Source of the DNA: a virus | Taxonomy: Duplodnaviria > Heunggongvirae > Uroviricota > Caudoviricetes | DNA length: 9,331 nucleotides | Strand: one strand, 5' to 3' | Virus record (IMG/VR): IMGVR_UViG_2526164667_000011 | Span: 1-9,331 of that record | In this document: in pieces, positions 1-9,331 of the stretch | Numbering within the stretch: position 1 is the stretch's first letter | How the letters are laid out: each line of letters starts with the position of its first letter | Made by a program: the position numbers and the translations under genes | The notes under the pieces: model-generated | The model's database searches: none | What the model was told of the DNA's origin: nothing | Seen by the model: only the letters and a program-made list of their open reading frames with translations

Positions 1-677
1 GTCAGCGACCAGAATTTTTTGATGTTGTTAATCGCGGTACGGCTGTATCGTTCGCGTTGTTCAACGATCCCCAGCTTCACCATCTGGTGATATGCCTGAT
101 TAGCCGTCAGGCGGATACCATACTGTTTCAGCAGTGCACTCAGCGACAGCGTGGGGCGGCTTGAGCCATCAGGCGCATCAGCAGGAGCATCAATGGCATA
201 GCGCGGTGCCAGATTCGGTAAGCCAACAGCCTCCTGAAGTTTCTGACAGGCTCCAAGCACTGAAGAGTTAGACAGATTTAACTCCCGGCGCATAAAGTCC
301 AGCAGAATCACACCAGCCTGCATCTTGTCAGCAGCCTGTTCGGATAATTTTTCCGGTGCGCTGGTTACCATGTCGAAAGTACGGATCACCTTCAGATGGA
401 ATGACGGGCTGATCCACATTGCATAGGCATACACCAGTTCTTTGCAGACATACGTCCCCTGGTTATTTCCGCCACGAATAACGTTAACTGGCTCTATATT
501 GACCGAGTTGCAAATCTGCAACTCGCTTATTAAACGCTCAGTTTGCTCATTGCGGAGCCAGAATGCAGGCTTATGCTTATCCAGAGAACCGGCAGCCCTG
601 TGCAGATCGTTCAGGCTGTAACGACCATAAGCATCACGACGAACTTCAATACCATCAATGACCATCAGATTATTCAT
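1..677 (-). CDS. KilA-N domain-containing protein (phage antirepressor-like DNA-binding protein); 3'-partial, C-terminus lies beyond the window start
   Basis: Not in the ORF track because it runs off the window. I translated the minus-strand frame by hand: ATG at 677..675 with an AGGAGA Shine-Dalgarno 6-7 nt upstream, then open to position 3 with no stop (more than 225 codons). The N-terminus MNNLMVIDGIEVRRDAYGRYSLNDLHRAAG...KPAFWLRNEQTERLISEL...GTYVCKELVYAYAMWISPSFHLKVI matches the KilA-N/APSES fold pattern from memory. It starts 19 nt downstream of the rusA stop. Confidence 0.6.
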   Translation of the reverse strand, partial: MNNLMVIDGIEVRRDAYGRYSLNDLHRAAGSLDKHKPAFWLRNEQTERLISELQICNSVNIEPVNVIRGGNNQGTYVCKELVYAYAMWISPSFHLKVIRTFDMVTSAPEKLSEQAADKMQAGVILLDFMRRELNLSNSSVLGACQKLQEAVGLPNLAPRYAIDAPADAPDGSSRPTLSLSALLKQYGIRLTANQAYHQMVKLGIVEQRERYSRTAINNIKKFWSL

Positions 678-696
678 ACTTCGTTTCTCCTCTTAA

Positions 697-1086
697 TCAG
701 GCGGCTGCACCCGCCGTTTTCTCGTACTTACTGATAGTGATCTCGACCTTCCCTTCCGGGATAACCGGTCCCCACTCCACCAGCATTCTTTTCACCTGAC
801 TGTCGTCTTCCCACACACCCGCGTGGGTCAGGGCGTCAAACAGCGCCTTGTTATAGTTGTCCAGATCGCGGATCCGGTTATCCGGAGGAAACAACACGAT
901 CTCCACTGAAGCAGGTGCCGACGTTGGTTTTGGCAGACGACGTAACTGCTCAACTATTGCTGCACACGCCGCGCTCTGGAATTTGCGCCCCGCCGCGCTT
1001 ATCAGGCTCTTACCTGCAAACGCCCCTTTGTTGGGGTGTCGCCAGTACGTGTTCACGCTGGGCGGGAAAGGCAGAATCAGCTTCAT
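697..1086 (-). CDS. rusA: RusA-family Holliday junction resolvase (crossover junction endodeoxyribonuclease)
   Basis: 129-aa ORF. LPFPPSVNTYWRH...DNRIRDLDNYNKALFDALTHAGVWEDDSQV resembles E. coli/phage RusA (PWPPSxNxYYRH...DLDN...KAxxDALTxAGxWxDDxQV), including the acidic catalytic cluster. Its start overlaps the upstream gene's stop by 4 nt (ATGA). Confidence 0.85.
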   Translation of the reverse strand: MKLILPFPPSVNTYWRHPNKGAFAGKSLISAAGRKFQSAACAAIVEQLRRLPKPTSAPASVEIVLFPPDNRIRDLDNYNKALFDALTHAGVWEDDSQVKRMLVEWGPVIPEGKVEITISKYEKTAGAAA

Positions 1087-1409
1087 ACTTTCAGACCCCT
1101 CTCATGTAACCAGTGGGCTGCACGCAGCCTGGCGTTTTCCTCACCGGCAAGCAGTGAGCGGATAATCCCGACCGCCTCGCTGTCGTCGTCCTTCACCGCG
1201 GTATGAAGCGTTATCCCCCGGGCCACACCACGCTTTATCGTGATGACGCCTTTTTTCTCCAGTGCGCGAAGATGCTCCACCGCTGCATTCACTGAACGAT
1301 ATCCCAGCATGGTTGCCACCTCCTGATTGGTTGGCGGAAAGCCACGCTCTTTCTGGTAAGAAATCAGCATATCCAGCACCTGCTGCTGGCATTGAGTTAA
1401 CGTCGTCAT
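1083..1409 (-). CDS. LexA N-terminal DNA-binding-domain-like protein (winged helix), lacking the S24 peptidase domain
   Basis: 108-aa ORF. LTQCQQQVLDMLISYQKERGFPPTNQEVATMLGYRSVNAAVEHLRALEKKGVITIKRGVARGITL parallels the LexA N-terminus ([65 protein letters not shown]). There is no GDSM/K peptidase region. 4-nt overlaps with both neighbouring genes. Confidence 0.7.
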   Translation of the reverse strand: MTTLTQCQQQVLDMLISYQKERGFPPTNQEVATMLGYRSVNAAVEHLRALEKKGVITIKRGVARGITLHTAVKDDDSEAVGIIRSLLAGEENARLRAAHWLHERGLKV

Positions 1410-2059
1410 GCCGCCATCTCCCTGACCAGTTTTTCCGCCTGCTGGCGAACCTGCGCCAGAAAGGCCTCACCACATGCCTCAAGTTCATCGCGCCCGATGT
1501 AGCTGATTGCCGGTCCCTTCCAGGTCTTGTCGAAAACAGCAATAGCACCAGCGAAGAAAGCGCCTGTCGGTACCTGCTTCTCGTCTTTCGGGATAAACCA
1601 GACAGGCAGTTCAAAACCAATACGCCCGCGAATAAAAGCAATATGATCTGCATCTTCCGGCCACCACACTTCGCTGGTGGCAGCTTTAATCAGGAAAACA
1701 TAGCGCCCGCCTTTATCACGCATGGCACTGGCATGCTTCATGATGTAACGCATGCCGGTGATGTATTGCCCCTCATGCTGACTGGCGCGGCTGTATGGGG
1801 GATTACCAAAGGCAGCACCTTTAAGCTCCGCAAGACGTTCTGACCAGTCATGCGCCAGCGCGTTGTCTTCCGCCGTGTAATACGCGGCACATTTGGCATT
1901 ATCACCGTCAGTGAACAGATCCAGAACAAACGGGCCAAACAGGGTGTTAATTCCCCAGAAAATGTTGTCCGGCGTGCGCCACTGATCGCCCACTTCCTTC
2001 AGTTCATGGGCTGGTTTGTTCCGCAGTTCCACCAGCGCCTGGCAATATTTATTACTCAT
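1406..2059 (-). CDS. Phage orphan N6-adenine DNA methyltransferase (Dam-like, NPPY motif)
   Basis: The protein contains GAAFGNPPYS, the catalytic (D/N)PPY motif IV of N6-adenine methyltransferases, and has typical phage Dam size. No restriction endonuclease partner is adjacent. The ORF track starts it at GTG 2092 (228 aa); I prefer ATG 2059 (217 aa, MSNKYCQ...), which forms a TAATG stop/start junction with the upstream gene and follows a GGGGG purine run. Confidence 0.75.
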   Translation of the reverse strand: MSNKYCQALVELRNKPAHELKEVGDQWRTPDNIFWGINTLFGPFVLDLFTDGDNAKCAAYYTAEDNALAHDWSERLAELKGAAFGNPPYSRASQHEGQYITGMRYIMKHASAMRDKGGRYVFLIKAATSEVWWPEDADHIAFIRGRIGFELPVWFIPKDEKQVPTGAFFAGAIAVFDKTWKGPAISYIGRDELEACGEAFLAQVRQQAEKLVREMAA

Positions 2060-2553
2060 TAAGCCCCCACGTAATTCCCTGACAGATACCACTCTTCACC
2101 CGATGCAGCGCGCTTGCTGCTTTTCCGTAAGCACCGCTCACGACGCGCCAGAAAATTGTTTCGCTCTTGCTGGGAGTGGCTTTCACGGAATGCCGCCATC
2201 CACACCGTTGCAGCACGACGGTATAAGCCCCTGGACTCCAGTTCTTCCGCCTGGCGGGTCAGGCACAAAATCACCCGTGGATCGTTAGTGCCGACATAGA
2301 AATTGCGCACAGGTCTGGTTTCTCGAACTGGTTGTGGTTCCGGTTCCTGCGCTCTCTCAGTCAGGCGCGGGAAATGTCTGCGTGTATCTCCTTCACAACG
2401 GTGAGCCACACGCCCGCTCTGACGTAACTTGCTTGCTGACCGCAGAACGCGCTGCCGTGAGTAACCTGCAAAAGCATCCGCAATGTCTCCGGAAGTACAC
2501 CCCGGATGGGCTTCAATGAATTTCTGAACGTCATTCAAAAGACTCATGATCAC
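2059..2553 (-). CDS. Putative transcriptional regulator with PerC-like C-terminal motif and a winged-helix-like N-terminus
   Basis: 164-aa ORF. The C-terminal segment LESRGLYRRAATVWMAAFRESHSQQERNNFLARRERCL resembles the PerC-family signature (GLWRRAAxRW) from memory. Start is GTG 2553 (4-nt overlap with the O-like stop) or ATG 2547. Same size and position as YfdN of CPS-53, from memory. Confidence 0.55.
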   Translation of the reverse strand: MIMSLLNDVQKFIEAHPGCTSGDIADAFAGYSRQRVLRSASKLRQSGRVAHRCEGDTRRHFPRLTERAQEPEPQPVRETRPVRNFYVGTNDPRVILCLTRQAEELESRGLYRRAATVWMAAFRESHSQQERNNFLARRERCLRKSSKRAASGEEWYLSGNYVGA

Positions 2554-3389
2554 CCCCTGAATCCTGCCGGGATCTGGCTGTAGTCCACGTTGTCGTAACT
2601 GGCTTTGAAGTACGGGTCCTCACGTCCGGCTACAGATACCGCAGGAACTTCCCAGGATTCTTCGAAATGACGATCCGGACCAAAGAACGTGACAGCCTGT
2701 TTCACAAATTGTGTGCCGCTGTTACCCATCGCAGATACCCAGCCCGCGTAGCGTTTCACACCTTCCAGCATGGTTTCGGGGTTTACCCCCTCATTCAAAC
2801 GGGCTTTCCAGGCTTTGAAGGCTGCAGATTTTGAATTGCCACCAGCACGTTTGGGATATGCCAGCCATGCCTGCTCAAACTCTGGAGAGTATTCCGGTCG
2901 GTTTGAACGAACTCGCACAGACTCATCAGCAGATGCACCAACAGCTATTGGTTCATTGACTGGTTCTTTGACTGGTTCAAAAGAGTGACTGGTTCTGGGT
3001 GAATCTCCTGCACTACCCCCTGGTGCAACTCCTGCACTACCTAGTGCAACTCCTGCACTACCTGGTGAATTTGCTGCACCAGATAGTGAATTATTTGCAC
3101 TACTCCCTAGTGAATCTCCTGCACCATCAAGATGAAGGAGATAGATATTACTTGAGTTACCTTTTTCACCTTTCCGGGTGACTTTTTTTACCAGCCCGGA
3201 CTCACAAAGGGCCGCAATATGATTCATCACAGAACGTTTGCTAATCTCGCACTGGTCAGCAATATGCTGGTAGCTGGGCCAGCACTCACCCTGATCGCTG
3301 GCATTATCAGCCAGCTTGATCAGAACCAGTTTTCGCAATGGATTACCCACTCGAATTTTCATCGCTTTAACCATCAGCTCCATACTCAT
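2550..3389 (-). CDS. Replication initiation protein, lambda O-like: N-terminal HTH DNA-binding domain, Gly/Ser/Ala-rich repeat linker encoded by the iterons, C-terminal replisome-organiser-like domain
   Basis: 279-aa ORF with a GGAGG Shine-Dalgarno 6 nt before ATG 3389. The N-terminus (KLVLIKLADNASDQGECWPSYQHIADQCEISKRSVMNHIAALCESGLVKK) is HTH-like. The linker GSAG-rich repeats coincide with the DNA repeats at 2999..3130. The C-terminal FEQAWLAYPKRAGGNSKSAAFKAWKAR motif resembles phage replication initiators. Architecture mirrors lambda O, whose gene also contains the origin. Confidence 0.75.
   Translation of the reverse strand: MSMELMVKAMKIRVGNPLRKLVLIKLADNASDQGECWPSYQHIADQCEISKRSVMNHIAALCESGLVKKVTRKGEKGNSSNIYLLHLDGAGDSLGSSANNSLSGAANSPGSAGVALGSAGVAPGGSAGDSPRTSHSFEPVKEPVNEPIAVGASADESVRVRSNRPEYSPEFEQAWLAYPKRAGGNSKSAAFKAWKARLNEGVNPETMLEGVKRYAGWVSAMGNSGTQFVKQAVTFFGPDRHFEESWEVPAVSVAGREDPYFKASYDNVDYSQIPAGFRG
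2999..3130. repeat. Iteron array (candidate phage origin of replication) inside the O-like gene: six tandem 21/24-bp units
   Basis: Units begin at 2999, 3023, 3044, 3065, 3086 and 3110. Examples are GTGCAACTCCTGCACTACCTA and GTGAATCTCCTGCACTACCCCCTG. Each unit holds an internal dyad (GTGCA...TGCAC). Periods are multiples of 3, so the reading frame is kept. An A+T-rich stretch follows at 3131..3193 (ATAGATATTA, CTTTTTCAC, ACTTTTTTTACC). Confidence 0.6.
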
Positions 3390-3610
3390 GCTGCACCTCC
3401 GAGATGCTTCATGTTTTTTCCGGAGCGAAAGGCTATAAGCGGCATACTGACGCGGTAATTACGGCCCAGCGGTTCACAAATCACCTTCTGACATTCACGG
3501 TCAACCAGGCTAACACGTAGAACATGCCCTGCAGGTGTGGTGTACCACTGACCCGGACGAGGACAACGGAAAGTCTGATTGGTAAACCGTTTGAAAATAT
3601 TCCGGATCAT
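3386..3610 (-). CDS. Small hypothetical protein (74 aa) between the Rha-domain gene and the O-like gene
   Basis: The ORF is bounded by 4-nt ATGA overlaps on both sides (start overlaps the Rha stop at 3607..3610; stop overlaps the O-like start at 3386..3389), the same coupling pattern as the rest of the operon. No recognisable motif. Its 3' end contains the O-like gene's Shine-Dalgarno. Confidence 0.45.
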   Translation of the reverse strand: MIRNIFKRFTNQTFRCPRPGQWYTTPAGHVLRVSLVDRECQKVICEPLGRNYRVSMPLIAFRSGKNMKHLGGAA

Positions 3611-4752
3611 TTGCGCCCCCTTACCTCTGAAGGGTTCAGCGACAAATTTATGAGGCAGGCCAGTGCCGAAGCATCATTAATATAGTCATACAAGCTAACA
3701 GCCAGCGGAGATTCGGCTTTTGCCAACATAGGATAAAGCTGCTGCAGCCAGACCTGATGAATTGATGAAATGTAGGAATAGAGAACGCTGGCGTTATGTG
3801 CAACGTCGCTCAGTACAGAGGGATTTGAAAGCTGTTTCTCCATCTGGTTAAAGGCATTGATGTATGCCTCTTTGAACTGGGCAGCACGTTTACCCGTGAA
3901 GCCCATGGCAAGAAACGCAAAACCGTCGCGGGTGATTTGGTAACAAGGGAGTTTGCGGCCTGTGCAATCGGTGTAATCACTGGGCTGAAAATTCAGCTCA
4001 GTGAATTCAACAGAGCACTCAAGCGTCTGGATTTTTTGAATAACGTTTTTGTGCTGCTTGCAGAAATATTCGGCAACGGCCAAAGAAGAGGTAACAGCCT
4101 TCCCATGGATAACATCAATTTTAGGGTGAGTTTGGGTAGGGGTGGTTGCCATAGTGACATCCTCATGTGCGAATTTTGAAAACTCACCACATGGGACGCC
4201 AATCACAGAGGTGGTGAGACGTACAGGGTTGGCGTAACCGGTCGCACATGACCCCGGCGCATCTTTCGATGCCCCTGCACGCCCCACCATAATTTGGATG
4301 TGAGGAAACGTGCGCAAAAAAACCGCTGAAGCGCGGTTATGCGCATGTGCGAATTTCAGGACGCCAATCCCGGCACCCGCTTTATAAGGTGCCTGAGCAG
4401 TGTAACGTCCCGGAATTGCAGAATCAATATGCTGGTGGTCCTTCACACTCAACAAAATCACGCCTGAATTTCCACAAAGGACTAAAGCACTCATGCGGGT
4501 AGTCTTTGCGAAGATAGATAACGCGCTGTGTTTCTGGCTCCCAACGAATAACATGGACATAAAGCCCTCTTCCGTCACGAAACCAGCGGTTAAGTTCCTG
4601 CACAACTCGCCCCCCACAGTCAGGTAAAGTTCTCTGTGGTTACTTACAGCCAGGTGATTTGGTAATCTGCATTCATGCCGTAACAACAGGTGTTCAGCGA
4701 CGCTGACCACCAGCTGTTGCGACAAACGGTTATTTGCCGTTAAACTGTTCAT
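3607..4752 (-). CDS. Rha-family phage regulatory protein; the track ORF is 381 aa with the Rha domain at about residues 205-300, and an internal ATG at 4152 would give a canonical 181-aa Rha protein
   Basis: VTSSLAVAEYFCKQHKNVIQKIQ...YQITRDGFAFLAMGFTGKRAAQFKEAYINAFNQMEKQL matches the Phage_pRha signature (ITRDGFxFLxMGFTGKxA...FxxAFNxME). The frame is open for 1146 nt, with an ATGA overlap with the upstream gene at 4749..4752. The internal ATG at 4152..4150 (Met201) has a GAGGA Shine-Dalgarno 7 nt upstream and sits where Rha proteins normally begin. Confidence 0.6.
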   Translation of the reverse strand: MNSLTANNRLSQQLVVSVAEHLLLRHECRLPNHLAVSNHRELYLTVGGELCRNLTAGFVTEEGFMSMLFVGSQKHSALSIFAKTTRMSALVLCGNSGVILLSVKDHQHIDSAIPGRYTAQAPYKAGAGIGVLKFAHAHNRASAVFLRTFPHIQIMVGRAGASKDAPGSCATGYANPVRLTTSVIGVPCGEFSKFAHEDVTMATTPTQTHPKIDVIHGKAVTSSLAVAEYFCKQHKNVIQKIQTLECSVEFTELNFQPSDYTDCTGRKLPCYQITRDGFAFLAMGFTGKRAAQFKEAYINAFNQMEKQLSNPSVLSDVAHNASVLYSYISSIHQVWLQQLYPMLAKAESPLAVSLYDYINDASALACLINLSLNPSEVRGRK

Positions 4753-5300
4753 GCGTTAGTTTCTCCACAGACACAAAACGCCACGACGCCCGGAGCTGCA
4801 CACTCGCGGGCGTCACTCTTTTCTGGAGCGCAAAAGATTTTGTAGACCAGTGCTGCATGCTCCTGGAGCTTCGAAATTGACAGATACAACTCATCATTAA
4901 TTGCTGTCTGCTCGTGTGGCTCCACTACCCCATCTTCGATTGCCGAACGAATCTGCTTTGAGTAACTCCCGATCTGTTCGATGGCTTCCAGCAGGCGCTG
5001 GTTTATATCGGCGTTCTCTACTTCCTCAATTTCAGGAAGCGATACAAACACCCCACCAGCAGACTGTGCGACAGCATCCGCAATGTAGTGAGTGCCAGCC
5101 GCGCGCTGTAAAATCATTGCCCATCCCAGCGGGAAAATCTGATCGCCATCTGCACGAAGGCGGTTGAATAAAGCGTTCTCTGTTACATCCAGCCACTCAG
5201 CAGCTTCAGCGTAACCTCCCGGCAACGCCGCGATAGTTTTTCTGACAGCTTTCACGTACCACTCAGGTTGTTTTTCCACTTTCCAGTGATGCTTACCCAC
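4749..5300 (-). CDS. Putative CII-like phage regulatory protein (in the cII position immediately after cro; possibly the CP76/YdaT-like family)
   Basis: 183-aa ORF with a GTG start at 5300 and a strong GGAGGT Shine-Dalgarno 5 nt upstream, which lies inside the 3' end of cro (8-nt overlap). Assignment is mainly by position/synteny; family membership is from weak memory only. Confidence 0.5.
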   Translation of the reverse strand: MGKHHWKVEKQPEWYVKAVRKTIAALPGGYAEAAEWLDVTENALFNRLRADGDQIFPLGWAMILQRAAGTHYIADAVAQSAGGVFVSLPEIEEVENADINQRLLEAIEQIGSYSKQIRSAIEDGVVEPHEQTAINDELYLSISKLQEHAALVYKIFCAPEKSDARECAAPGVVAFCVCGETNA

Positions 5301-5553
5301 GGCTTACCTCCTGTTCCTGTGGTTTAAACCCATTCTGGTTTTGGCTAGATTGAAAACGTGCCGGATAAAGAATCTGCATTTCGCTGATTTCACCCTTAAA
5401 AAAATTGGCCAGACGTTCTGCAAGATCGATAAATGGAATTTGTTCCTGTCTTTCAATACGACTCAGCGTCGCTGGATTGACCTGAACGCCCGCAGCAACA
5501 TGCTGCAAAGTAAATCCGTGCGCCTTACGCACATTCCGTAATGGTGATTGCAT
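5293..5553 (-). CDS. Cro-like HTH transcriptional regulator (XRE/Cro-C1 family)
   Basis: 86-aa ORF divergent from the cI-like gene. The HTH segment is GFTLQHVAAGVQVNPATLSRIERQEQIP. GGAGG Shine-Dalgarno 5-6 nt upstream of ATG 5553. First gene of the minus-strand early operon. Confidence 0.8.
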   Translation of the reverse strand: MQSPLRNVRKAHGFTLQHVAAGVQVNPATLSRIERQEQIPFIDLAERLANFFKGEISEMQILYPARFQSSQNQNGFKPQEQEVSRG

Positions 5554-5650
5554 ATAACCTCCACATATTGCGTGATGAGCATATTATTTCACGCAAATAT
5601 TTTGCGCAAGTTGATTTGCTTAACGCGCAATAAAGAAATGTAATAAACGC
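5554..5650. promoter_or_regulatory. Divergent cI/cro operator-promoter region (PR/PRM-like) with clustered TTGCG/CGCAA half-site palindromes
   Basis: Inverted repeats: TTGCGTGA-N13-TCACGCAA (about 5568..5596), CGCAAA-TAT-TTTGCG (5592..5606), palindromic TTGCGCAA (5602..5609) and TTGCttaacgcGCAA (5617..5630). Candidate minus-strand promoter for cro: -35 TTGCGC, 17-bp spacer, -10 TAATAT. Candidate plus-strand promoter for cI: -35 TTGCTT (5617..5622), 16-bp spacer, -10 TGTAAT (5639..5644), placing the transcript start at or next to the cI ATG. Confidence 0.55.
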
Positions 5651-6343
5651 ATGAACATAGGAAATCGAGTCAGACAACTTCGCCAGGCGAAGAACATGAA
5701 AATCGCCGATCTCGCTGAAGCAATAGGAGTGGATGCGGCGAATATCTCGCGCCTCGAAACAGGTAAGCAGAAACAATTCACTGAACAAGCCCTGAGTAAT
5801 ATTGCCAGGAGCTTAGGTGTTGATATTGCTGATCTCTTTACCTCAGACCTCAAAAGTAATACTGTATGTAAAAACAGTATTAGTGAGGATGTTGCGCAGG
5901 TGAAGGATGTATTCCGTATTGAAATGCTGGATGTCAGTGCCAGTGCGGGAAATGGCCTTATCCAGGGCGGTGATGTCATTGATGTGATTCATGCCATTGA
6001 ATACAGAACTGATAATGCTGTATCGATGTTTGGTGGACGACCAGCAAATCACATTAAAGTTATCAACGTTCGTGGGGACAGTATGTGTCCAACCATTGAG
6101 CCAGGAGATCTCATCTTCGTTGATATCAGTATCAATCAGTTTGATGGGGATGGTATATATGTATTTGGTTTTGATGATAAAATTTACGTCAAACGACTGC
6201 AAATGATACCTGATAAACTGCTGGTAATTTCTGATAATCAGATTTACCGCGAATGGGGAATTACCAGCGAAAACGAACATCGGTTTATGGTCTTTGGAAA
6301 GGTCTTAATCAGTCAGTCACAAACCCTTAAGCGACACAATTAA
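5651..6343 (+). CDS. cI: cI-like phage repressor: N-terminal HTH_XRE domain plus C-terminal S24 (LexA-like) autopeptidase domain
   Basis: 230-aa ORF. HTH: MKIADLAEAIGVDAANISRLETGKQ. Peptidase: Ser nucleophile in VRGDSMCPTIEPGDLIFVD (Ser144) and Lys in IYVKRL (Lys181), 37 residues apart as in LexA. Candidate Ala-Gly autocleavage site at Ala99-Gly100 (SASAGNG). No Shine-Dalgarno precedes the ATG. Confidence 0.9.
   Translation: MNIGNRVRQLRQAKNMKIADLAEAIGVDAANISRLETGKQKQFTEQALSNIARSLGVDIADLFTSDLKSNTVCKNSISEDVAQVKDVFRIEMLDVSASAGNGLIQGGDVIDVIHAIEYRTDNAVSMFGGRPANHIKVINVRGDSMCPTIEPGDLIFVDISINQFDGDGIYVFGFDDKIYVKRLQMIPDKLLVISDNQIYREWGITSENEHRFMVFGKVLISQSQTLKRHN
5860..5879. promoter_or_regulatory. SOS-box (LexA-box)-like palindrome TACTGTATGTAAAAACAGTA inside the cI coding sequence (interdomain linker)
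   Basis: Matches the E. coli LexA box consensus TACTGTATATATATACAGTA at 16 of 20 positions, with a perfect CTGT-N8-ACAG core and AT-rich centre. It is the only CTGT-N8-ACAG site I found in the window. Function is untested. Confidence 0.4.
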
Positions 6344-6364
6344 CCCCTACCTCAACATCAATTA

Positions 6365-6384
6365 GCCACCAGAAGGTGGCTTTT
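6365..6384 (+). terminator. Rho-independent terminator downstream of the cI-like gene
   Basis: GCCACC-agaa-GGTGGC hairpin (6-bp GC-rich stem, 4-nt loop) followed directly by TTTT, 22 nt after the cI stop. Confidence 0.6.
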
Positions 6385-6397
6385 CATCACCCACCAA

Positions 6398-6452
6398 ATT
6401 GCATATCTCGCAATAAAAACACTTGCATAATGCGCAACTTCATTTTATCTTT
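6398..6452 (+). promoter_or_regulatory. Candidate OL/PL-like operator-promoter for the rightward yfdP-yfdQ-yfdR operon
   Basis: ATTGC-atatctc-GCAAT (6398..6415) and TTGC-ataatgc-GCAA (6423..6437) repeat the TTGC/GCAA half-sites seen in the cI-cro region. Possible promoter: -35 TTGCAT (6423..6428), 17-bp spacer, -10 TATCTT (6446..6451). Hexamer assignment is tentative. Confidence 0.3.
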
Positions 6453-6883
6453 CTTTCCAGACATACAAACAAGGTACTAACAAAATTTGGTTGTAACACG
6501 GCGTATGGCACATGCGTCGTTAGCGGTCTGGTGACGTTAAAGGGGACAATCCACTCCTTGCTCGAGCAAACAAACCAGGTAGCCGGAATGTGCAAGTCAA
6601 TGATGACGCTGATAAGACGCCTAACCAGCGTGGCGATTCGGTTTGACGCCTGGGAAGAGACCAGGGTGCAACGATGAGGGCATTTATGGAACCGCGACAA
6701 AGTGTGGTGCCGTAACTGGCTAAGTGCTCTCAGCGTTGTGGTGAATGCGCAGGCTGATGCGCGAAAGACATTGCAGCTATTGCGGAAAAGAGCTGTTCGG
6801 CGGGGCAATTAAACGCCCGTGAGAGTCTGAAATAACCGCAAGCCGGAGATCAGCACCGGTCACCACAGCAGCCACTGCTTTGG

Positions 6884-6929
6884 CGGTACCAGTTTGTACA
6901 CTTGCTTACGGCTGGTACCGCTCTTTTTA
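6884..6929 (+). terminator. Hairpin followed by a T-run in the long leader before yfdP (terminator-like, or an RNA element with a boxA-like CGCTCTTTTTA)
   Basis: Perfect 9-bp stem CGGTACCAG/CTGGTACCG (6884..6892 and 6912..6920) with a 19-nt loop, followed by CTCTTTTTA. The sequence CGCTCTTTTTA (6919..6929) resembles a lambdoid/rrn boxA (CGCTCTTA / TGCTCTTTAACAA). The large loop makes a classic terminator uncertain. Confidence 0.35.
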
Positions 6930-7065
6930 CAAAACAGAGAAGAGCATCACCGGACGACGGGCTCATAACCCAATCCATCCGGGCGGCTGCCACCGCAGGT
7001 GTTCTTCTCTGTTTTGTGGAGAAACCAACCGACCTTGCAGGGTCGATATGATGAGGAGTAGCAAA

Positions 7066-7428
7066 ATGGCTAGCGAACGCAGTACTGATGTGCAGGCATT
7101 TATCGGGGAGCTGGACGGCGGCGTATTTGAAACCAAAATCGGCGCAGTTCTCAGTGAAGTCGCTTCCGGTGTGATGAACACGAAAACCAAAGGTAAGGTC
7201 TCGCTCAACCTGGAAATCGAACCGTTTGATGAGAACCGTGTGAAAATCAAACACAAACTCTCATATGTTCGCCCGACTAACCGCGGGAAAATTTCTGAAG
7301 AAGACACCACCGAAACGCCGATGTATGTCAATCGCGGTGGTCGCCTGACTATTCTGCAGGAAGACCAGGGACAATTACTGACTCTTGCCGGTGAACCTGA
7401 CGGAAAACTCCGCGCAGAAGGTCATTAA
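7066..7428 (+). CDS. Hypothetical protein, YfdP-like (CPS-53/KpLE1 prophage family), 120 aa
   Basis: The track ORF starts at 6880, but the plausible start is ATG 7066 (MASERSTDVQAFIGELDGG...), preceded by GAGGAG about 8 nt upstream; two ATGs at 7047/7050 lack a Shine-Dalgarno. The size and the position immediately upstream of yfdQ fit YfdP from memory. Confidence 0.65.
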   Translation: MASERSTDVQAFIGELDGGVFETKIGAVLSEVASGVMNTKTKGKVSLNLEIEPFDENRVKIKHKLSYVRPTNRGKISEEDTTETPMYVNRGGRLTILQEDQGQLLTLAGEPDGKLRAEGH

Positions 7429-7493
7429 TATCGTTCTTAATTAACTGATTATTTATCTCATCACTGAATATCTTAATATAGTGAGGACTTATT

Positions 7494-8318
7494 ATGTCTC
7501 AGAACTTAGACGCAACCGCAATTAATCAAATCCATGCCCTTATTTCTGCTCAGGGTGTTAATGAAATTATCAGTAAGATTGGTGCCGATGCTGTGGCATT
7601 GCCTGAGAATTTCCGCATTCATGATCTGGAAAAATTTAATTTAAATCGCTTCCGTTTCCGTGGTGCGCTTTCCACTGCCAGCATCGATGACTTTACCCGT
7701 TATTCTAAAGATCTTGCAGATGAAGGCACCCGCTGCTTTATCGATGCCGATAATATGCGAGCAGTCAGTGTGCTTAACCTGGGTACTATTGATGAACCAG
7801 GTCACGCAGATAACACCGCCACTCTCAAACTGAAAAAGACAGCACCGTTCTCTGCCCTGTTGTCTGTTAACGGCGAGCGTAACTCCCAGAAGTCACTGGC
7901 AGAATGGATTGAAGACTGGGCCGACTACCTTGTGGGCTTTGATGCTAATGGTGACGCTATTCAGGCAACAAAAGCGGCTGCGGCGGTCCGTAAAATCACG
8001 ATTGAAGCAAACCAGACCGCTGATTTTGAAGATAATGACTTCAGCGGCAAACGCTCCCTGATGGAGTCTGTCGAAGCGAAGACCAAAGATATTATGCCAG
8101 TGGCATTTGAATTTAAATGCGTTCCGTTTGAAGGTCTGAAAGAACGTCCGTTTAAATTACGCCTCAGCATTATCACTGGCGATCGTCCTGTACTGGTTCT
8201 GCGCATTATTCAGCTGGAGGCGGTGCAGGAAGAAATGGCTAACGAATTTCGTGATCTGCTTGTTGAGAAATTCAAGGACAGCAAAGTAGAAACCTTTATT
8301 GGTACTTTCACCGCCTGA
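7494..8318 (+). CDS. yfdQ: YfdQ-family protein (DUF2303), 274 aa
   Basis: GAGGA Shine-Dalgarno about 8 nt upstream of the ATG. Length and sequence ([21 protein letters not shown]...) match my recollection of E. coli K-12 CPS-53 YfdQ. It lies directly upstream of the HD-domain yfdR-like gene, as in K-12. Confidence 0.8.
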
Positions 8319-8330
8319 TTTCATTACTGC

Positions 8331-8355
8331 AAATGCCCCTGCGGGGGCATTTATG
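8331..8355 (+). terminator. Stem-loop downstream of yfdQ (possible weak intrinsic terminator or attenuator)
   Basis: AAATGCCCC-tgcg-GGGGCATTT hairpin (9-bp stem with a GC-rich core) starting 13 nt after the yfdQ stop. The trailing U-tract is short (AUUUAUGG), so termination is probably partial. Confidence 0.4.
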
Positions 8356-8445
8356 GAAACGTAATTTACTCAATAATCGCCGGATGGTGAGGGATTCTTT
8401 TTACCAGAATTCAGCGCGGTGCAGCGCATATACGTGGAGAACAAA

Positions 8446-9331
<886 letters not shown>

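Follow-up and report, generated by a model that had tools for sequence, protein, structure and literature searches.

What occupies the roughly 680 bases between the repressor gene and yfdP in a lambdoid prophage that carries no N gene? The window analyzed here, a 9,331-nucleotide stretch of caudoviral DNA (IMG/VR record IMGVR_UViG_2526164667_000011, positions 1 to 9,331), comes from an Escherichia coli lambdoid prophage: several chromosomes are 100% identical to it over 6344-7066, and phage mEp460 is 98.8% identical. The gene for the cI-like repressor (5651-6343, +) faces a cro-like gene (5553-5293, -), and a spacer of 722 bases separates it from yfdP (7066-7428), which is followed by yfdQ and yfdR. 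An earlier note, made from the sequence alone, had proposed an RNA-level element between 6385 and 7065, such as a long structured leader or a small RNA (sRNA), and both of these descriptions apply. The stretch is probably the non-coding early-left (PL) leader of an N-less prophage of the SfV/mEp460 type, acting as RNA. It is built of three structured RNA modules, each with covariation support, designated A (6498-6735), B (6734-6880) and C (6924-7025). The earlier interpretation was thus right in kind and missed the main content, namely a probable tRNA-derived scaffold and two further modules shared with P1, the Uetakeviruses and many other phages.

Folding of the 621 nucleotides from 6455 to 7075 is far better than that of shuffled sequences (z = -5.66), and base pairs have changed on both sides in modules A, B and C and in the long stem at the end of module A (Table 1). 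These results bear on two checks suggested in the earlier note, RNA folding and compensatory change; for its Infernal/Rfam check, no Rfam family matches the region in a scan of the whole window at E <= 1 or of 6440-7070 at E <= 10.

Module B belongs to a large family with a single plan. A 27-nt degenerate pattern retrieves at least 120 viral contigs, which hold 92 distinct elements. Their 5' half consists of a strand UUGUGGUG, an AAU linker and a hairpin GCGCA-GGCUGA-UGCGC; their 3' half consists of an insert, a hairpin GCCGG-AGAUCAGCA-CCGGC and, at once, the 3' strand CACCACAA. The inserts are diverse (74 distinct, 6-145 nt). Across 77 distinct scaffolds, 96% of cells pair, versus at most 57% when the pairing is slid, and seven pairs have changed on both sides. 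The two hairpin loops are complementary (GCUGA/UCAGC) and pair in 97% of cells of the same scaffolds, a contact in which both-side changes could not appear because the search pattern fixed one loop. G-U pairs outnumber A-C mismatches 50 to 10, so the + strand is the strand that folds. A covariance model recovers the full-length scaffold in 80 of the 80 loci searched; the resulting 80-species alignment, which is fitted to that model and so leans towards it, pairs in 90.8% of cells versus at most 40% slid. Both partners have changed in 14 of its 19 pairs, with several pair types per position. With the corresponding model R1, the window and the whole mEp460 genome each contain one copy. Antisense complementarity between the insert and the rest of the window reaches 9 nt at most, which is the level of chance.

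Constancy of the frame extends far beyond Escherichia. The 22-nt core GTGAATGCRCAGGCTGATGYGC occurs exactly in 117 species (scan of one genome per species), among them members of Massilia, Janthinobacterium, Pandoraea, Achromobacter, Thauera, Halomonas, Pseudomonas and Dyella. A core invariant over proteobacterial classes argues for a universal binder, such as an RNA-processing or translation component, and against host-specific mRNA pairing, and the diversity of the inserts argues for interchangeable cargo. The genomes with an exact core belong to the Beta-, Gamma- and Alphaproteobacteria, along with a few metagenome-assembled genomes labelled Coriobacteriia, Phycisphaerales, Acidobacteriota and Geobacteraceae. 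By our own estimate, about 0.3 chance matches would be expected in place of these 117 species; such invariance is unusual for a phage-borne RNA.

The layout of module B resembles that of a tRNA: a 5-bp T-type hairpin directly continues the acceptor-like stem, a short linker joins that stem to a D-type hairpin, and the two loops make contact. Genomic context points the same way. The 5' flank AGUGCUCUCAGCGUU also stands in front of genuine tRNA-Arg(UCU) genes in phiV10, SPN1S, BUCT711 and EC.W1-9, the trailer AAUCACGCC is common to module B elements and phage tRNA-Arg, and a frequent 3' flank, (A)CCAAAUCACGCC, resembles the A-CCA-GAAUCACGCC of tRNA-Arg(UCU). In KP591P1 a tRNA-Ser begins where the element ends, and in Massilia an element lies between two tRNAs. 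A tRNA is found within 1 kb of 41 of 232 elements, and the nearest one is co-oriented in 39 of these 41. Judged from these sequences, module B is probably a tRNA gene derivative without an anticodon arm, in which five Watson-Crick loop-loop pairs have replaced the elbow contact.

Two further observations concern arrays of this type. In P1 (AF234172), the ban-operon leader holds three scaffold copies in tandem (1060-1144, 1293-1421 and 1554-1704, +), with tRNA-Thr on one side and tciA on the other. The annotated genes plp and upl run on the other strand and are largely covered by these copies, so that both coding annotations may be spurious; weak relatives of module C lie between the copies. 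T-arm-like hairpins (GGGUUCGAAUCCC, CUGGUUCAAUUCCAG, UCCGUUCAAUUCGGA) also occur just upstream of the conserved leader in RCS47 (2479-2500), KP591P1 (1479-1500), SPN1S (1617-1711) and EPP-1 (~1480-1500), at sites with no annotated or reported tRNA, which suggests further degenerate tRNA-like units within the arrays.

Module A, about 240 nt long, has relatives in P1 (ban operon, right after tRNA-Ile), phiV10, Tyrion, SPN1S, BUCT711, PAT1 and EC.W1-9, and its near-invariant block is present in at least 120 viral contigs, in 93 distinct versions. Over eight lineages, 89.3% of cells pair in the seven helices proposed for it, versus at most 41% slid, and 12 pairs have changed on both sides. Helix H6 appears elsewhere as CCUCG..CGAGG or CCGG..CCGG, and H5 as GGGA-UUCACCA-UCCC or ACGA-CUCACCA-UCGU. 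A long-range GCACAU/AUGUGC pairing proposed by RNAalifold was set aside in favor of the local hairpin at 6498-6520, where a G-C pair has become A-U through changes on both sides in Tyrion, SPN1S and PAT1. The long stem that closes the module keeps 13-14 of its 15 positions paired in 14 of 14 variants, with compensatory ends (TTTA/TAAG, TTGG/CCAG, TTCC/GGAG, TTGC/GCAG). Its 3' strand is the conserved 'leader' that precedes both module B and genuine phage tRNA-Arg genes. Downstream of module A in the Uetakeviruses lies tRNA-Arg(UCU) in four of six (phiV10, SPN1S, BUCT711, EC.W1-9) and a module B scaffold in Tyrion and, more weakly, PAT1.

The Uetakevirus locus itself is a gap of several hundred nucleotides, wholly or largely unannotated, that runs from a small head-side gene to the terminase region in six phages (phiV10, Tyrion, SPN1S, BUCT711, PAT1 and EC.W1-9). 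Module A stands on the strand opposite to the structural genes in all six examined, and in SPN1S a TTGACA -35-like hexamer lies just upstream of it.

Module C was found by pattern scan in at least 120 viral contigs, with 110 distinct sequences forming 29 clusters below 90% identity. Pairing extends to 94.3% of cells, and to 94.5% in the long stem, versus at most 52% slid, and six of the 16 long-stem pairs have changed on both sides, including outright swaps (G-C in 22 and C-G in 12; C-G in 19 and A-U in 10). The apex is almost invariant, with the consensus CCGGRCGACGGGCUCAUAACCCAAUCCAYCCGG. With the module C model R3, the + strand reaches 120 bits and the - strand 38, and a search of the complete mEp460 genome gives one copy. 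Of the small hairpins placed by the earlier note at about 6990-7035, the part near 6990 is the 3' strand of this 102-nt module, and a separate hairpin does exist at 7028-7047. In most of the 29 lineages, a G+C hairpin of differing sequence occupies this last site before yfdP (for example CGGCGG-UGGCAG-CCGCC).

The modules are distributed separately. BLAST against phages shows the leader to be a mosaic in which different phages share different sub-blocks (Table 1); tRNA genes are adjacent or near in three of the four phage loci inspected for the 6723-6763 block. ST64B, LLS and SfII have the same layout, with repressor-yfdP gaps of ~630-830 nt, and the SfV gap holds one annotated hypothetical ORF (orf33). 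In CPS-53 of E. coli K-12 the leader is absent, and similarity begins only ~20 nt before yfdP. At the position equivalent to the hairpin that ends the repressor transcript, the SfV and SfII records carry an annotated rho-independent terminator; a terminator-like scan also reports this palindrome, on the opposite strand.

Table 1. Features of the leader and its surroundings, in window coordinates.
Feature	Position	Strand	Details
End of repressor (cI-like) transcript	6364-6386	+	Hairpin GCCACCAGAAGGTGGC + T-run, assigned by sequence; context, outside the leader RNA
OL, first operator copy	6399-6413	.	TTGCATATCTCGCAA; matches OR copy TTGCTTAACGCGCAA (5616-5630)
OL, second operator copy	6423-6437	.	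TTGCATAATGCGCAA; matches the same OR copy
Candidate PL promoter	6423-6451	+	By eye: -35 TTGCAT 6423-6428, 17-nt spacer, -10 TATCTT 6446-6451; alternative -10 CATAAT 6426-6431
Shared block, query 142-319	6485-6662		P1, directly after tRNA-Ile, ban operon; 78% identity
Shared block, query 155-398	6498-6741		Uetakeviruses; 82% identity
Shared block, query 380-420	6723-6763		Klebsiella, Erwinia, Edwardsiella, Cronobacter and Salmonella phages, noncoding gaps; ~92% identity
Shared block, query 580-686	6923-7029		ST64B-type phages; 85% identity
Module A core	6498-6668	+	Conserved multi-hairpin RNA
Module A H1	6498-6520	+	Hairpin
Module A H2/H3	6524-6531 with 6575-6585	+	Long-range pairing
Module A H4	6541-6559	+	Hairpin
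Module A near-invariant block	6574-6596	+	ACCAGGUAGCCGGAAUGUGCAAG
Module A H5	6617-6631	+	ACGC-CUAACCA-GCGU
Module A H6	6649-6665	+	CCUGG-GAAGAGA-CCAGG
Long stem, 3' end of module A	6672-6735	+	CGAUGAGGGCAUUUA (6672-6686) pairs with UAAGUGCUCUCAGCG (6721-6735), 15 bp
Module B	6734-6880	+	Probable tRNA-derived scaffold RNA
Module B acceptor-like stem	6735-6743 with 6861-6869	+	AAU linker after the 5' strand
Module B D-like hairpin	6747-6762	+	Loop GGCUGA
Module B hypervariable insert	6763-6841	+	79 nt, at the anticodon-arm position
Module B T-like hairpin	6842-6860	+	Loop AGAUCAGCA; acceptor 3' strand follows immediately
Module B loop-loop pairing	6753-6757 with 6850-6854	+
sRNA-17 (published)	6734-6926	+	193 nt; 5' end at base of acceptor-like stem, 3' end in terminator U-tract
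Intrinsic terminator	6882-6928	+	11-bp G+C-rich stem, 6882-6892 with 6912-6922, then UCUUUUU; dG -23.2 kcal/mol
Module C	6924-7025	+	102 nt; three-way junction on a 20-bp stem
Module C long stem	6929-6944 with 7003-7018	+	ACAAAACAGAGAAGAG with UUCUUCUCUGUUUUGU, extended by CACC/GGUG
Module C near-invariant apex		+	CCGGACGACGGGCUCAUAACCCAAUCCAUCCGG; holds T-arm-like GGG-CUCAUAA-CCC
Module C variable hairpin		+	GCGG-CUGCCA-CCGC
Hairpin before yfdP	7028-7047	+	ACCGACCUUGCAGGGUCGAU, assigned by sequence; then Shine-Dalgarno GAGGAG 7053-7058, yfdP start codon 7066

Part of the leader has already been detected as RNA. sRNA-17 of E. coli K1 RS218, encoded in an mEp460-like prophage upstream of yfdP, was defined as a 193-nt transcript by 5' and 3' rapid amplification of cDNA ends (RACE) and Northern blotting, and was described as an orphan that has a promoter of its own and lacks relatives in Rfam (Sun et al. 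2020, Front Microbiol, PMC7719688). The published primers (Table S2 of that paper) place it on the window: one full-length primer, CGTTGTGGTGAATGCGCAGGCTGATGCGCGAAA, is identical to 6734-6766, and the other is the reverse complement of ...GGCTGGTACCGCTCTTTT, which ends in the terminator U-tract at ~6926. sRNA-17 is therefore module B plus the terminator, and its Northern probe matches the insert, at 6795-6844. The ArcA 'promoter fragment' of the same study corresponds to 6485-6734, that is, to module A, and its quantitative reverse-transcription PCR amplicon spans 6485-6880, starting 249 nt upstream of the claimed start site. It follows that there is a precursor running through modules A and B, so that 6734 is more probably a site of processing than of initiation. 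Deletion of sRNA-17 had its largest effects on yfdP, which rose 95-fold, and on yfdR, which also rose. The deletion replaces 6760-6880 with a retained cat cassette and leaves the terminator intact. Given the primer design and the pKD3 system, the cassette presumably points towards yfdP. This orientation, together with the rise of yfdP and yfdR, makes a cis read-through artefact likely, rather than trans regulation. The sRNA-17 paper describes neither the tRNA-like fold nor the hypervariable-insert family, nor modules A and C, nor that such RNAs occur in P1, Uetakeviruses and tRNA arrays.

The hairpin in which sRNA-17 ends had been noticed from the sequence at 6884-6929, and it is real. Its counterparts in SfV (dG -20.5), ST64B (-30.5) and LLS (-14.3) each run into five to six U residues and then into one common downstream element. 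The stem of SfV is almost identical in sequence, those of ST64B and LLS are unrelated, and the arrangement of hairpin plus U-run also recurs in most of the 29 lineages. Terminator function is here conserved without conservation of sequence. The boxA-like motif that the earlier note saw after the hairpin (CGCTCTTTTTA) dissolves in the same comparison: SfV has CGTCCTTTTT, ST64B GACCTTTTT and LLS CACCTTTTTT in its place. This lack of conservation disposes of the boxA/nut reading, and the GCUCUUU string is the terminator U-tract. The window contains no conserved boxA (CGCUCUUA-like), no N-like ORF and no Pfam match to one, in agreement with the earlier remark that no N-like protein is encoded here; LLS is likewise reported to lack N (PMC12315714).

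A put-like antitermination RNA, also suggested earlier, is not found either. The covariance model R2, built from putL and putR of HK022 with three relatives (the annotated putL-like site of HK639 and BLAST homologues in CobraSix and S9-5), scores its own putL and putR at 90 and 49 bits. Within 6385-7065 it has no match, its best window matches (7.6 bits) lying elsewhere, and it has none in the homologous leaders of mEp460, SfV, ST64B and LLS. BLAST with putL and putR returns 21 and 16 phage records only, none of the SfV, mEp460, ST64B or LLS type. Membership in the put family was rejected on these two grounds. Module A does begin ~40 nt after the presumed PL start, with the terminator at 6882-6928 further on, as in put-bearing operons; position alone is not diagnostic.

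Upstream of module A, the operators are clear and the promoter is faint. The pattern TTGC-N7-GCAA occurs four times in the window versus 0.49 expected, a count reached in 0 of 200 shuffles, and three copies (5616, 6399 and 6423) bracket the repressor gene. OL is therefore real, and the operator-like palindromes reported earlier stand. As for the possible promoter of the earlier note (6398-6452), a weak candidate at 6423-6451 can be drawn by eye; it overlaps the operators, matches the consensus poorly and was not picked up by the consensus promoter scan. The PL start site would lie at about 6438-6460. Similarity to phages of other immunity (2H10, cdtI, Ayreon) starts at 6470-6479, which is consistent with a module boundary near such a start. 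A fourth exact operator-like copy, TTGCGGCCTGTGCAA at 3953-3967, lies within a Rha-family ORF, distant from the immunity region.

These elements can be assembled into a working scheme. When repressor leaves OL (6399-6437), transcription would begin at about 6440-6460 and yield module A and then module B before meeting the terminator. The nascent RNA would be cut at the foot of the acceptor-like stem (6734), possibly by RNase P, or by RNase III or RNase E at the adjoining long stem, and this cut and termination would together release the stable 193-nt sRNA-17. Polymerases that pass the terminator would transcribe module C just ahead of yfdP, so that entry into yfdPQR would be attenuated; module C may then determine how stable the yfdPQR message is or how it is processed or translated, or else the way the polymerase elongates. 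What we infer here comprises the start site, the nucleases, and the roles of the scaffold, its insert and modules A and C. Tentatively, module B could represent a phage-borne family of tRNA-derived 'display scaffolds' spread over the Proteobacteria, in which a constant frame is excised and stabilized like a tRNA and carries a fast-evolving cargo that would serve as a seed, a decoy or an aptamer when phages are in conflict with hosts or with one another. Individual members would be sRNA-17 and, probably, STnc100/PasD, and modules A and C would be further tRNA-array-associated RNAs.

Several results weigh against this scheme. Sun et al. read 6734 as the start site, with an ArcA-bound promoter within module A (PMC7719688). 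ARAGORN finds no tRNA or tmRNA gene in the window, and the Rfam tRNA model (RF00005) does not match module B at E <= 10. CCA occurs near the acceptor-like 3' end in only 32 of 77 scaffolds, and the window copy is not in register. Since neither detector recognizes the element and CCA is often absent, tRNA-like processing is not assured. The conjectural roles of modules A and C, the uncalled promoter, the loop fixed by the search pattern and the model-fitted alignment count on the same side.

Two alternatives would remove the RNA altogether. One holds that a small protein is encoded by an ORF at 6423-6677 (+), 6440-6808 (-) or 6902-7051 (+), as the hypothetical proteins annotated here in the mEp460 and cdtI records and a match of ORF 6902-7048 to phrog_33599 (E = 2e-17) would have it. 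The PHROG matches fall only on ORFs that are antisense to yfdP or lie on the long hairpin, and these are probably annotation artefacts, since PHROG families are built from predicted ORFs and inherit their mis-annotation. PGAP annotates no gene between the repressor and yfdP in an identical E. coli chromosome, and Pfam gives no matches. Among 51 close homologues with 105 variable positions, variable sites fall on the three codon positions as 18/27/18 in the + ORF and 43/31/31 in the - ORF, without a third-position excess, and across module A in P1 and PAT1 no frame is stop-free beyond 57 aa. What the substitutions preserve instead is base pairs. Codon-position counts, breakage in relatives and lack of family matches thus reject the ORFs; a coding function is extremely improbable, and the earlier judgment that 6385-7065 holds no convincing ORF stands. 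The other alternative takes the region as a DNA-level element, either recombination sequences at mosaic junctions or a MITE-like element with terminal inverted repeats GTTGTGGTG/CACCACAAC. Strong mosaicism, with phages sharing different sub-blocks, and conserved ends that flank variable interiors would suit it. It is nonetheless very unlikely, given that G-U is tolerated five times more often than A-C (a one-strand RNA signature), that orientation is tied to neighboring tRNAs in 39 of 41 cases, that the RNA has been detected experimentally (PMC7719688) and that the helices covary with several pair types per position.

The remaining two alternatives accept an RNA and give it another role. sRNA-17 may be a conventional trans-acting, base-pairing sRNA expressed from its own ArcA-repressed promoter, with host mRNA targets (glnP, fdnG, tdcG, fim genes and others) and a tRNA-like shape that is incidental. 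The Northern signal, its dependence on growth phase and oxygen, gel shifts with ArcA-P and 48 differentially expressed genes in the deletion strain (PMC7719688) support this, as do a terminator hairpin with U-tail at the RNA end, like that of Hfq-binding sRNAs, and the sister RNAs STnc100/PasD, which are Hfq-associated sRNAs of the same fold with different seeds and so fit a constant scaffold with a variable insert. However, the 'promoter' fragment takes in all of module A, which is a conserved structured RNA in its own right; the ArcA concentrations were 20-80 uM (PMC7719688); the amplicon starts well upstream of the claimed start; the strongest effects fall on the adjacent yfdP and yfdR, where a cis artefact is likely; insert complementarity to the rest of the window does not exceed 9 nt; and host-specific target pairing leaves a 22-nt core that is invariant from Escherichia to Janthinobacterium and Halomonas unexplained. 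Overall, this alternative appears unlikely. By analogy with HK022, module A or C could instead bind the transcribing RNA polymerase in cis and render it termination-resistant, replacing N. The phage type has no N homologue, and Casjens and Smith speculate on put-like antitermination for LLS, which shares the operon (PMC12315714). Module A begins ~40 nt after the presumed start, with a first hairpin that shares ACGGCG...CAUGCGUCG with putL; the 40-nt apex of module C is near-invariant over 29 lineages, beyond the apparent need of a processing site; and read-through of a terminator inside the leader must be achieved somehow. Yet the put model is silent in the window and in four homologous leaders, and the 9-mer shared with putL is no more than chance would give (E = 1.9). 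The P1 ban operon, a separate Uetakevirus locus and tRNA arrays in virulent phages, all places where antitermination of an early operon would have little purpose, also harbor modules A and B, and module C is single-copy in mEp460 with no partner on the PR side, though HK639 is annotated with a single put-like site. A functional analogue of put is, on this balance, rather improbable.

If the leader does act as an RNA with a tRNA-derived scaffold, the 'orphan' virulence-associated sRNA-17 of neonatal-meningitis E. coli joins a very large family of phage RNAs defined by structure. Probable processing at 6734 and likely cis read-through into yfdP suggest that its published promoter and regulon should be examined again. 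Well-studied phages carry three conserved structured RNA motifs that have no Rfam family; in P1 the three scaffold copies lie beneath plp and upl, and module A lies between tRNA-Ile and ban. As far as we could determine, the scaffold family and modules A and C are undescribed; a catalogue of 10,006 viral candidate structured RNAs (PMC10690425) may hold them anonymously. The locus also raises the questions of how N-less lambdoid phages of the yfdP-yfdQ type pass a terminator in their early-left leader, and what purpose non-tRNA RNAs serve in phage tRNA arrays. A natural tRNA scaffold that tolerates arbitrary inserts would interest RNA engineers.

Elsewhere in the window, two Rfam matches exceed their gathering scores, C4 antisense RNA at 4207-4294 (-, 75.1 bits) and isrK at 4316-4392 (-, 62.3 bits), with a weak match to the c4-a1b1 target at 4353-4405. 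All fall within a 381-aa Rha-family ORF called by PGAP (3607-4752, -), so that either this ORF is over-extended or an immunity-type antisense RNA system lies within the PR operon. The yfdQ-yfdR spacer (8319-8418) contains a strong hairpin, GCCCCTGCGGGGGC, with a short T-run at ~8335-8353, and a chance-level Rfam STnc100 match (20 bits, E = 0.62) without scaffold features.

Among known systems, HK022 put comes from a lambdoid phage that likewise lacks N, and resembles this leader as a cis-encoded structured RNA that closely follows an early promoter and precedes terminators. put relieves pausing and termination through a cis effect on RNA polymerase that involves the beta' zinc-binding domain. 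It differs in being ~70 nt long with two stems and the consensus CGAACGGC..GUCGG..GGCGGGUUCAGGAUGA..CAAU; the present leader comprises ~600 nt and three unrelated modules without sequence or structure match to put, two of which also occur outside early operons. The N leader of lambda carries an RNase III hairpin. Module C is comparable to it in having a long, near-perfect stem that, within the early-left leader, lies immediately before the first gene, and differs in its conserved three-way-junction apex with a T-arm-like hairpin.

STnc100 and PasD, which are reported to share a fold and differ in seed (2026 preprint, where a tRNA relationship goes unmentioned), resemble module B. The third P1 scaffold copy matches the STnc100 family (RF02076) at 33.4 bits, below the gathering score of 47 (P1 1571-1690 to model 31-147), and the window copy gives no match to RF02076 at E <= 10. 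Both groups are prophage-borne, and the alignment shows the same plan: a closing stem (ca)UGGUG/CACCA(ug), an AAU linker, a 5' hairpin, a variable middle and a 3' hairpin CCGGG-AGGCA-CCCGG that abuts the closing stem. They differ in their loop sequences and in location, STnc100 and PasD lying near Q and lysis genes and module B in the PL leader. Because the P1 copy scores below gathering while the plan is shared, module B is regarded as a structural sister of STnc100/PasD rather than a member. The Pas sRNAs as a set (PasA-D) were set aside as different loci, only PasD/STnc100 being related, by architecture alone.

The tRNA cluster of phage T4 encodes the 'species 1 and 2' RNAs (rnaC, rnaD), which are small, stable, of unknown function, and co-transcribed and co-processed with tRNAs. 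They are stable small RNAs among phage tRNAs, a likeness to module B by description only, T4 being absent from the matches. Further architectural parallels are tRNAs and tRNA-like scaffolds, natural or engineered: tmRNA, the bacterial Y RNA YrlA, mascRNA, and the Ponchon-Dardel 'tRNA scaffold' used for expressing inserted RNAs. Unlike tRNAs, module B has no anticodon arm and no canonical T-loop or D-loop, its elbow is Watson-Crick paired and CCA is often absent. With tRNAs and the tRNA-like scaffolds it shares an acceptor stem stacked on a T-type hairpin, a 2-3-nt linker, a D-type hairpin and interacting elbow loops, as well as a place in tRNA arrays with tRNA-type leaders and trailers, and foreign RNA at the position of the anticodon arm.

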